Below, in pieces: positions 27,900-28,445 of a stretch of 64,000 nt of DNA. The translations under genes and the position numbers were made by a program. Source of the DNA: Clostridiaceae bacterium (GTDB lineage Bacteria; Bacillota; Clostridia; Saccharofermentanales; Saccharofermentanaceae); NCBI GenBank assembly GCA_012729635.1, contig JAAYCT010000014.1:37440-101439 (forward strand). The letters are read 5' to 3'. Position 1 is the first letter of the stretch. Each line of letters starts with the position of its first letter. The notes beneath the pieces were generated by a model. The model saw nothing but the letters and a program-made list of their open reading frames with translations, searched no databases and was not told the DNA's origin.

Positions 27900-28445
27900 T
27901 TACTCTGTCATTACGGAAAGGATATTTCCGTTCGCATCATATTCGTATGAAACGGTGCTTCCGTCCGGATAGGTCACACGAATCAGGCGACCGAGCAAAT
28001 CGTATTCATAAATCAGATCCCCCTTATCGATAACCTGCTCTCTTGGGAGGACTGTGATTTGCAGACTGTCGGATCGCCCGGATTCCGCCTCCGTTACAGT
28101 GATTGTGGTCTCGCCGGGTAACAGTGCGGTCAGCATACCGGAGGTATCTATCGTTGCGATACTCACATCGCTACTGGTCCATGCCAATTCACTGCCGGAT
28201 GCTCCCGAAAGCGTTAGTTGATAAATCCCGCCTTCATGAACTTCGGTATCCAAAGGAAGAATCAACAGGGTTTCCGTAGTCTCTGTTGGGACCGTTACGG
28301 AGGTCGTTGTCGGGGATGTTGTAGAACTCGTGGTCGTCGGTGTCGGATCGAGCGGACAAGCCGTACACATAATCATGATAACCGCCATCAAACCGAGCGC
28401 GATTCCGGTCTTGATACACCGGGTGTGGTCCAGGTAAACTTTCAT
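27900..28445 (-). CDS. Lipoprotein with a Big_2 Ig-like domain and two C-terminal YD repeats.
   Basis: Signal peptide plus lipobox ([12 protein letters not shown]). A Thr/Ser-rich linker. Big_2-like region [41 protein letters not shown]. C-terminal [31 protein letters not shown]. Start at plus 28443-28445 with RBS GAGGGGAAAAAT. It lies 41 nt upstream of the RHS gene start on the same strand. Confidence 0.7.
   Translation of the reverse strand: [181 protein letters not shown]

Follow-up and report, generated by a model that had tools for sequence, protein, structure and literature searches.

A 64,000-nucleotide stretch of genomic DNA from a Clostridiaceae bacterium (contig JAAYCT010000014.1, positions 37,440 to 101,439; the whole of this stretch is referred to below as the window) carries, on its minus strand, a small ATG-initiated gene of 181 codons plus a stop (27900..28445), followed directly by the co-oriented gene for a giant RHS polymorphic toxin of 4186 residues (15283..27843). 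The small gene encodes an exported protein in which a Big_2 domain precedes a single pair of YD repeats, and this protein is very likely to be a dedicated extracytoplasmic partner of the giant. As to the manner of that partnership, the explanation favoured here, to which roughly an even chance is given, is that the small protein works in trans, as an adaptor or tether whose YD hairpins would pair with the YD-repeat shell of the giant.

The small gene was found intact, and in the same position before an RHS gene, in four lineages, with protein identities of 100% (the window itself), 72% (L012), 62% (L013) and 48% (L001); one additional homologue is a fragment. At all four loci a co-oriented homologue of the giant's N-terminus, displaying 73%, 55% and 37-49% identity at the loci of the relatives, begins 56-78 nt after the small gene, and every full-length homologue of the small protein stops two residues past the second YD motif. 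The ratio of nonsynonymous to synonymous substitution rates (dN/dS, estimated by the method of Nei and Gojobori, with synonymous sites near saturation) was 0.15-0.22; the lowest dN was found in the linker and YD segment, and most of the alignment's invariant columns likewise fell within the YD tail. As judged from these comparisons of sequence, the small gene is real, conserved and under purifying selection. Its product is identical to a protein from a metagenome-assembled genome at NCBI (GXY43_03845, Clostridiaceae bacterium), which is annotated as hypothetical.

The architecture of the small protein was established from profile matches, from the alignment of its homologues and from an AlphaFold2 (AF2) model built on a five-sequence alignment. 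Residues 1-30 (28356..28445, minus) comprise a positively charged N-terminus, a hydrophobic helix (residues 2-27 in the model) and a lipobox-like sequence, M-C-T-A-C, that ends at Cys30. These are followed by a Pro/Thr/Ser-rich stalk (residues 31-58; 28272..28355, minus), the length of which differs among homologues and which is modelled as disordered over residues 29-54 (predicted local distance difference test score, pLDDT, below 50). The Big_2 Ig-like (immunoglobulin-like) domain occupies residues 59-135 (28041..28271, minus); Pfam family PF02368 recognised it over residues 78-121 with 30.7 bits, above the cutoff of 22.8, and it was modelled as an Ig sandwich at residues 61-133 (pLDDT ~90), for which a Foldseek search of the PDB returned only Big_2-type Ig folds (among them 7quz, a Big_2-CBM56 structure, intimin and the C-terminal domain of lambda gpV; E=3.6e-7 for Big_2). 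Residues 146-179 (27909..28010, minus) form the 34-residue YD-pair module, which matched the Pfam RHS_repeat family (PF05593, of which one unit equals two YD motifs) at residues 148-177 with 41.3 bits (E=1.9e-10), and for which the sole NCBIfam match was TIGR01643, YD_repeat_2x (29.7 bits). In the model, the YD tail appears as a five-strand beta-meander at residues 137-180 (pLDDT 78-92). An earlier note on this DNA had described a Thr/Ser stalk, a Big_2 domain and two genuine YD repeats at the C-terminus, all of which were confirmed. The protein contains YD repeats yet is not structurally an RHS protein, in that two motifs yield a meander instead of a shell, and in that the chain ends immediately after them with neither the RHS core (PxxxxDPxGL) nor a C-terminal toxin. 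Nor does it resemble an immunity protein of a polymorphic toxin, its gene being located upstream of the toxin and carrying an export signal.

The same note had also credited the small protein with a lipobox, and this part of its description held only partially. The M-C-T-A-C sequence, with a Cys at position -3, fails the PROSITE-like (PS51257), G+LPP and classic L-x-x-C patterns, and the most divergent homologue (P0005, with I-S-T-A-C) is the sole one to pass the PROSITE-like one. Cys30 itself is shared without exception by the four full-length homologues, and failure of a pattern does not rule a lipid out; lipidation at Cys30 is therefore plausible on the evidence of the alignment, and export or membrane tethering of the protein is well supported.

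The arrangement of the two genes is consistent with their co-transcription, as read from the operon signals around them (a promoter-like site, the absence of a terminator and two strong ribosome-binding sites). Approximately 43 nt 5' of the small gene is found a sigma-70-like site (28488..28516, minus), comprising TTGAGA, a 17-nt spacer and a TATAAT hexamer with a TG extension of the -10 element, which agrees with the consensus at 11 of 12 positions and is a consensus match only. A ribosome-binding site, GAGGGG (28452..28457, minus), lies 6 nt before the ATG of the small gene. The 41 nt that the earlier note gave as the distance between the two genes is counted to the TTG at 27858; translation of the giant more probably begins with the ATG at 27843, which is preceded at 7 nt by GAGGGGG (27850-27856) and agrees with public gene calls, so that the intergenic spacer (27844..27899, minus) measures 56 nt, within the range of 56-78 nt displayed by the homologous spacers. 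The reading frame itself, its orientation and its place directly before an RHS gene were as that note had claimed, the last being confirmed by the domain content of the next gene on the same strand. A search of the spacer revealed no terminator-like site, and the predicted fold of the intergenic RNA was no better than that of shuffled sequence (z=0.6). Upstream of the pair lies an acyl-CoA dehydrogenase/EtfBA operon and downstream a convergent cation-efflux gene; since both flanks are housekeeping genes unrelated to the pair, the unit appears to consist of the small gene and the giant only.

While no further protein combining Big_2 with YD repeats was found, either by profile search or by a family-alignment scan of the contigs of GTDB genomes, the profile search yielded many small proteins whose sole recognisable element is one YD pair. 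This search apparently filtered by length: no match exceeded 344 residues for the 181-residue query, and the first 190 residues of the 4186-residue giant, used as a query, brought up no protein at all, the giant included. Owing to that filter, the small size of the recovered proteins is not used as evidence. The parts joined to the pair are diverse. In six of the proteins (P0203, P0213, P0215, P0218, P0225 and P0230), a PROSITE-type lipobox and a Thr/Ser stalk precede a C-terminal YD pair; in P0174, P0177, P0182, P0184 and others, the YD pair follows a Sec signal and is joined through an acidic linker to a C-terminal helix that is hydrophobic and rich in Trp; P0178 and P0192 combine a signal peptide, a stalk and the pair; and the pair is found with a dockerin in P0208 and with a tail resembling those of the type IX secretion system (T9SS) in P0231. 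Across 31 stand-alone modules the pair is 34 residues long, with zero indels and a mean pairwise identity of 60%. Scored against their own hidden Markov model (HMM), which is partly circular as it was built from these sequences, the stand-alone modules reached 59-77 bits (77 for that of the window), and the best internal repeat of a giant reached at most 29 bits.

A length-unbiased scan of GTDB species genomes, re-scored with an HMM built only from the proteins of the profile search, ranked mostly short ORFs (open reading frames) with a single pair at the top (L014, L070, L018, L025, L034, L023, L016, L015 and L062), and repeats within multi-repeat RHS genes mostly scored below them. By these scores, the YD pair is a module distinct from the internal repeats of the giants. 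Scored with the family alignment instead, the same scan was dominated by generic YD repeats lying within large RHS genes. Of two other searches, an exhaustive one by HMMER that used a Big_2-only profile gave multi-Big_2 giants alone among its best 150, and the pattern YEYD[LIV]LGR..V.YPDG, run against metagenome DNA, matched internal repeats of large RHS genes only. The small protein of the window, with an export signal, a single near-consensus YD pair of 34 residues and a giant RHS neighbour, falls within the class proposed here, which is not a curated family.

Two additional architectures were observed among the single-pair proteins. Those of two Lachnospiraceae loci (L014, 5794-6672, and L070, 5878-6942) carry a BspA-like leucine-rich-repeat domain and then a very Lys-rich C-terminal tail. 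Those of Proteobacteria and Acidobacteriota (L016, 5848-7284; L034, 1128-2180; L092, 7811-9466) display a signal peptide and one YD pair followed by fn3 or Ig arrays, and look like detached 'stalk' subunits beside RHS genes.

The genomic neighbourhoods of the YD-pair proteins further tie the module to large RHS genes. The genes for P0182, P0178, P0230, P0191, P0186 and P0192 each stand upstream, by 1-43 nt, of a large gene in the same orientation, encoding respectively 3824, 5036, at least 356, at least 416, at least 3045 and at least 1115 residues (the lower bounds denote ORFs that run off the ends of contigs). The 5036-residue product displays a PKD/DUF6531/RHS architecture, and a comparison of five of the six large genes, all but the gene after P0192, showed them to be homologues of one another or of the fn3/PKD/pre-shell region at the centre of the window giant. 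The contigs encoding P0181 end right after the small gene and offer no readable neighbour. In the GTDB loci, an ORF of at least 700 residues was found within ~1.3 kb of 9 of 11 single-pair ORFs, several of these neighbours containing 7-15 YD repeats; the lineages involved were Planctomycetota, Victivallales, Acidobacteriota, UASB270, Eiseniibacteriota, Steroidobacteraceae and Lachnospiraceae, and in one case (L014) a 420-residue membrane protein is encoded between the small gene and the giant. These neighbourhoods suggest a linkage that is one-way: a YD-pair gene nearly always has a giant or RHS gene beside it, and not the reverse. The arrangement, which the earlier note had termed unusual, is indeed rare when all RHS genes are considered, but is recurrent wherever a stand-alone YD pair occurs.

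A comparison of the giants themselves bears upon what such a partner might supply. No wall or membrane anchor domain was recognised in the window giant (Pfam, E<=0.01), and none was seen in the other partner-bearing giants (L094, L101 and the first 1200 residues of L095), whereas four of six partner-less giants from Firmicutes possess an anchor in cis, in the form of three SLH domains (L086), LysM (L047), CBM_2/CBM49/SH3_3 (L030) or a lipobox, LTGC (L020). The contrast of 4/6 with 0/4 (Fisher one-sided p=0.07) is suggestive only, and would fit cis and trans anchors that are complementary. WapA-type toxins have been described as carrying cis anchors and depending on upstream accessory genes for export and anchoring (PMC12704120). 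Two other giants were observed in the course of this comparison: another partner-less RHS giant (L041), which displays a canonical lipobox, VTGC, and a giant from a Firmicutes lineage (UBA3943; L049, 682-4281), in which the N-terminal order of domains is teneurin-like (TTR_TEN1-4, FN-plug_TEN1-4, TEN_NHL).

Taken together, the synteny, the purifying selection, the distinctness of the module, the variety of the anchors and the contrast between cis and trans anchoring favour a tether or adaptor that acts in trans. In such a mechanism, export of the small protein through the Sec pathway would expose its two YD hairpins, which would then pair, by beta-sheet augmentation, with an edge of the giant's YD-repeat shell. 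The shell is the obvious receptor because it is built of the same type of repeat, and the proposed docking region (DUF6531, YD-repeat shell and RHS core; residues ~2610-3894) corresponds, by domain positions, to 16162..20016 on the minus strand. Such pairing would retain a giant that has no recognised anchor domain at the surface of its producer, one stalk's length from the membrane. A YD pair that stays constant while the part attached to it varies, being mostly a surface anchor carried on a long and flexible linker and at times an adhesive array, bears the mark of a docking tag; the same 34-residue pair, when joined to a lipid, a C-terminal helix, a dockerin, a T9SS-like tail or LRR (leucine-rich-repeat), fn3 and Ig arrays, could serve other giants. 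It may tentatively be proposed, as a broader and less probable extension, that the pair is a portable docking tag distributed across several phyla, by which separate anchors and adhesive arrays are plugged onto the YD shells of giants; on this view an RHS cocoon would be a surface machine assembled from several modular subunits and not a single chain, and in Gram-positive bacteria the tag would be the missing element that keeps RHS toxins lacking an anchor attached to the cell producing them. The suggestion of the earlier note that the small protein might be a surface anchor or chaperone is backed to this extent by comparative evidence, namely the invariant gene order, the analogous YD-pair proteins before homologous giants and the absence of cis anchors.

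Several observations weigh against a tether in trans. The lipobox of the small protein is non-canonical, which makes its anchoring by lipid only putative; the contrast between cis and trans anchors rests on 10 proteins (p=0.07); and part of the sampling of YD pairs came from the search with the apparent length filter. No one fixed geometry emerges: some of the proteins have the pair at the C-terminus, others at the N-terminus of the mature chain. Gene order also varies: the gene for the dockerin protein P0208 is not directly adjacent to an RHS gene but lies two genes downstream of one, and outside Clostridia the small gene is in some cases downstream of the RHS gene and in others opposite to it. 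Most RHS giants, moreover, have no YD-pair partner nearby (~18 of the 22 whose start falls inside the fetched locus). Finally, the signal peptide of the giant (giant residues 1-21, window 27781-27843) contains a conserved Cys in the sequence L-S-[F/A/V]-C-M-L-P. The LSFC of the window giant fits none of the three lipobox patterns, and the LSAC of the L001 giant (10652-10714) fits the classic pattern and fails the PROSITE-like and G+LPP patterns, so that by its signal sequence the giant itself might be a lipoprotein, and thus anchored in cis, in some lineages.

The alternative that survives best, to which a small chance is given, is that the small protein is a steric chaperone, an extracytoplasmic folding template whose tethered YD hairpins, already formed, would nucleate, near the Sec translocon, the beta-spiral of the giant's shell while the chain emerges unfolded, and would then be released. 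The same evidence of linkage, selection and topology applies to this mechanism; a shell of more than 1000 residues, once exported by Sec, has to acquire its fold outside the cell; and the passage across the envelope of Rhs/WapA proteins larger than 300 kDa has been described as unresolved (PMC12704120). A template, however, leaves unexplained the YD pairs that are fused to dockerin, LRR, fn3, Ig arrays and T9SS tails, which resemble cargo or anchors, and most RHS giants fold without such a partner.

It is also conceivable, but unlikely, that the small protein is an independent surface protein that uses its Big_2 domain and YD pair to bind a wall or carbohydrate ligand, and that its gene is merely co-regulated with that of the giant, for example to remodel the envelope or to mark it for the giant's passage. 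RHS repeats have been proposed to be carbohydrate binders (PMC3482391), Big_2 domains are common in adhesins, and a promoter-like site precedes the small gene. Set against these points, the YD pair is the sole element that the neighbouring small proteins have in common and is of the same repeat type as the giant's shell, while their other parts are interchangeable, and the tight gaps of 1-43 nt recur across lineages.

A role in self-recognition or protection, in which a displayed YD pair would mark kin or block the re-binding of the cell's own toxin and so partly replace an immunity gene, is distinctly improbable. It would account for the lack of an immunity-like ORF after the Tox-REase-7 end of the giant, an absence noted at window positions 14518-15283 and hence for the window only, the 3' ends of the other giants being out of view. 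The next gene there is the convergent Cation_efflux gene (14518-15174, plus strand), which ends 108 nt from the giant's stop, and the only minus-strand ORF past the giant's end (14656-15192) is antisense to it and looks spurious. Tox-REase-7, however, is a toxin of nuclease fold that acts in the cytoplasm, where the known immunity proteins also reside (PMC3482391), and a pair conserved across lineages at 60% mean identity is too constant for kin specificity.

That the small gene is a pseudogene or a remnant of recombination (the latter a possibility raised by the earlier note), left behind from the 5' end of an RHS gene that the present giant has since replaced, is hardly tenable: RHS loci are hot spots of recombination and the ORF does stop after two repeats only, but it is intact with the same stop in four lineages, evolves at the dN/dS quoted above, possesses its own ribosome-binding site and promoter-like site, shares no DNA identity with the giant past one 47-nt match at 79%, and belongs to an architecture that recurs with other anchors. 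Two further origins were considered and rejected: recent duplication or gene conversion from the giant, for which that 47-nt match is all the shared DNA, and fusion to the giant by read-through or frameshifting, given that the two ORFs are in different frames and that the spacers at the four loci (56, 57, 56 and 78 nt) have no conserved phase.

A tether that docks on the shell in trans has partial parallels in known systems. In the TcB-TcC (BC) structures, an RHS/YD cocoon is built from two separately encoded chains whose repeats form one shell. As in the present pair, the two genes are adjacent and co-oriented, and the two-chain shell offers a precedent that extends to the small protein only by hypothesis. 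TcB and TcC, however, contribute hundreds of residues each, and TcB adds a beta-propeller gate, whereas the small protein would contribute two repeats (34 residues) and is for the rest made up of an Ig domain, a stalk and an anchor, its pairing with the giant being postulated. BC cocoons have been compared previously (PMC8765631).

WapA-type Rhs proteins (of Bacillus subtilis, and of Streptococcus suis with upstream SecF-like and SrtB genes) are, like the window giant, Sec-exported giants of Firmicutes that need to be retained at the surface and have accessory genes directly upstream (PMC12704120). They differ in that their wall anchor lies in cis, as cell-wall-binding or LysM repeats, and in that their accessories are a SecF-like protein and a sortase; the window giant is without a Pfam anchor domain, and its accessory is a YD-pair protein. 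The plug, seal and cap elements of RHS proteins (the plug and seal peptide of RhsA, the beta-propeller of Tc toxins, and the FN-plug and NHL of teneurins) are likewise small parts that dock on a YD shell and set its closure or attachment (PMC8765631), and the teneurin FN-plug is Ig-like, as is the Big_2 domain of the small protein. Those elements, however, all belong covalently to the shell's own chain or to a large partner, and YD repeats are not among them; the window giant, moreover, already possesses a DUF6531 before its shell.

Two systems offer looser comparisons. The cohesin-dockerin pair, as a functional analogy only, resembles the proposed tag in that a short conserved module is fused to many cargo or anchor modules (P0208 in fact joins a YD pair to a dockerin), but its fold and sequence are unrelated, and a receptor for the YD pair is only proposed. 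EagR, VgrG and PAAR of type VI secretion systems (T6SS) are dedicated partners encoded beside Rhs toxins and mediate their attachment to a delivery structure, but they reside in the cytoplasm, form part of Gram-negative T6SS and are free of YD repeats. Neither the giant nor the neighbouring genes that were scanned contained a T6SS domain (PAAR, VgrG).

The giant itself carries a Sec signal peptide and, by Pfam, Beta_helix_3, CarboxypepD_reg-like, fn3, PKD and DUF6531 domains, 20 RHS_repeat stretches and a C-terminal Tox-REase-7, with the RHS core DPFGL at residues 3890-3894. A long Pro/Thr/Ser linker (residues ~905-965, window ~24950-25130) separates the N-terminal beta-helix portion from the remainder. 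Its mature N-terminus (residues ~58-105, window 27529-27672) resembles a lone YD-like hairpin and shares a DKGD lead-in with the tail of the small protein; an hhalign comparison of that tail with the hairpin gave a P-value of 0.0012 and a probability of 19%. The hairpin is kept in the giants of L001, L012 and L013 and absent from those of L094, L095 and L101. Pairing between the tail of the small protein and this hairpin, suggested by the shared DKGD...YD...PDG, was accordingly rejected as a general mechanism, the N-termini of the latter three giants being unrelated.

A full-text literature search, the coverage of which left out many papers in subscription journals, brought to light no account of a YD-pair protein, whether stand-alone or a lipoprotein, as a partner of RHS toxins; the current annotation of genes for YD-pair proteins goes no further than 'hypothetical' or 'RHS repeat domain-containing', and surface-tethered YD-pair proteins that accompany RHS giants are apparently an undescribed set. 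It has yet to be explained how Gram-positive cells retain and display Sec-exported RHS toxins larger than 300 kDa (PMC12704120); a partner that carries the kind of repeat from which the toxin's shell is built offers a concrete and testable mechanism, that of trans-anchoring by YD-YD pairing; the 34-residue module also provides a simple genomic marker by which such systems may be found. If the pairing is true, the multi-chain shell principle of TcB/TcC would extend to a minimal subunit of two repeats, and a compact peptide tag would be available for the attachment of cargo to RHS cocoons. If it is false, a large group of polymorphic toxins of clostridia would still, on the strength of the strict linkage, have a newly defined accessory gene. 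The strict linkage of a 34-residue module to giant RHS genes across lineages was unexpected, and it renders the retention of RHS proteins by Gram-positive bacteria testable.

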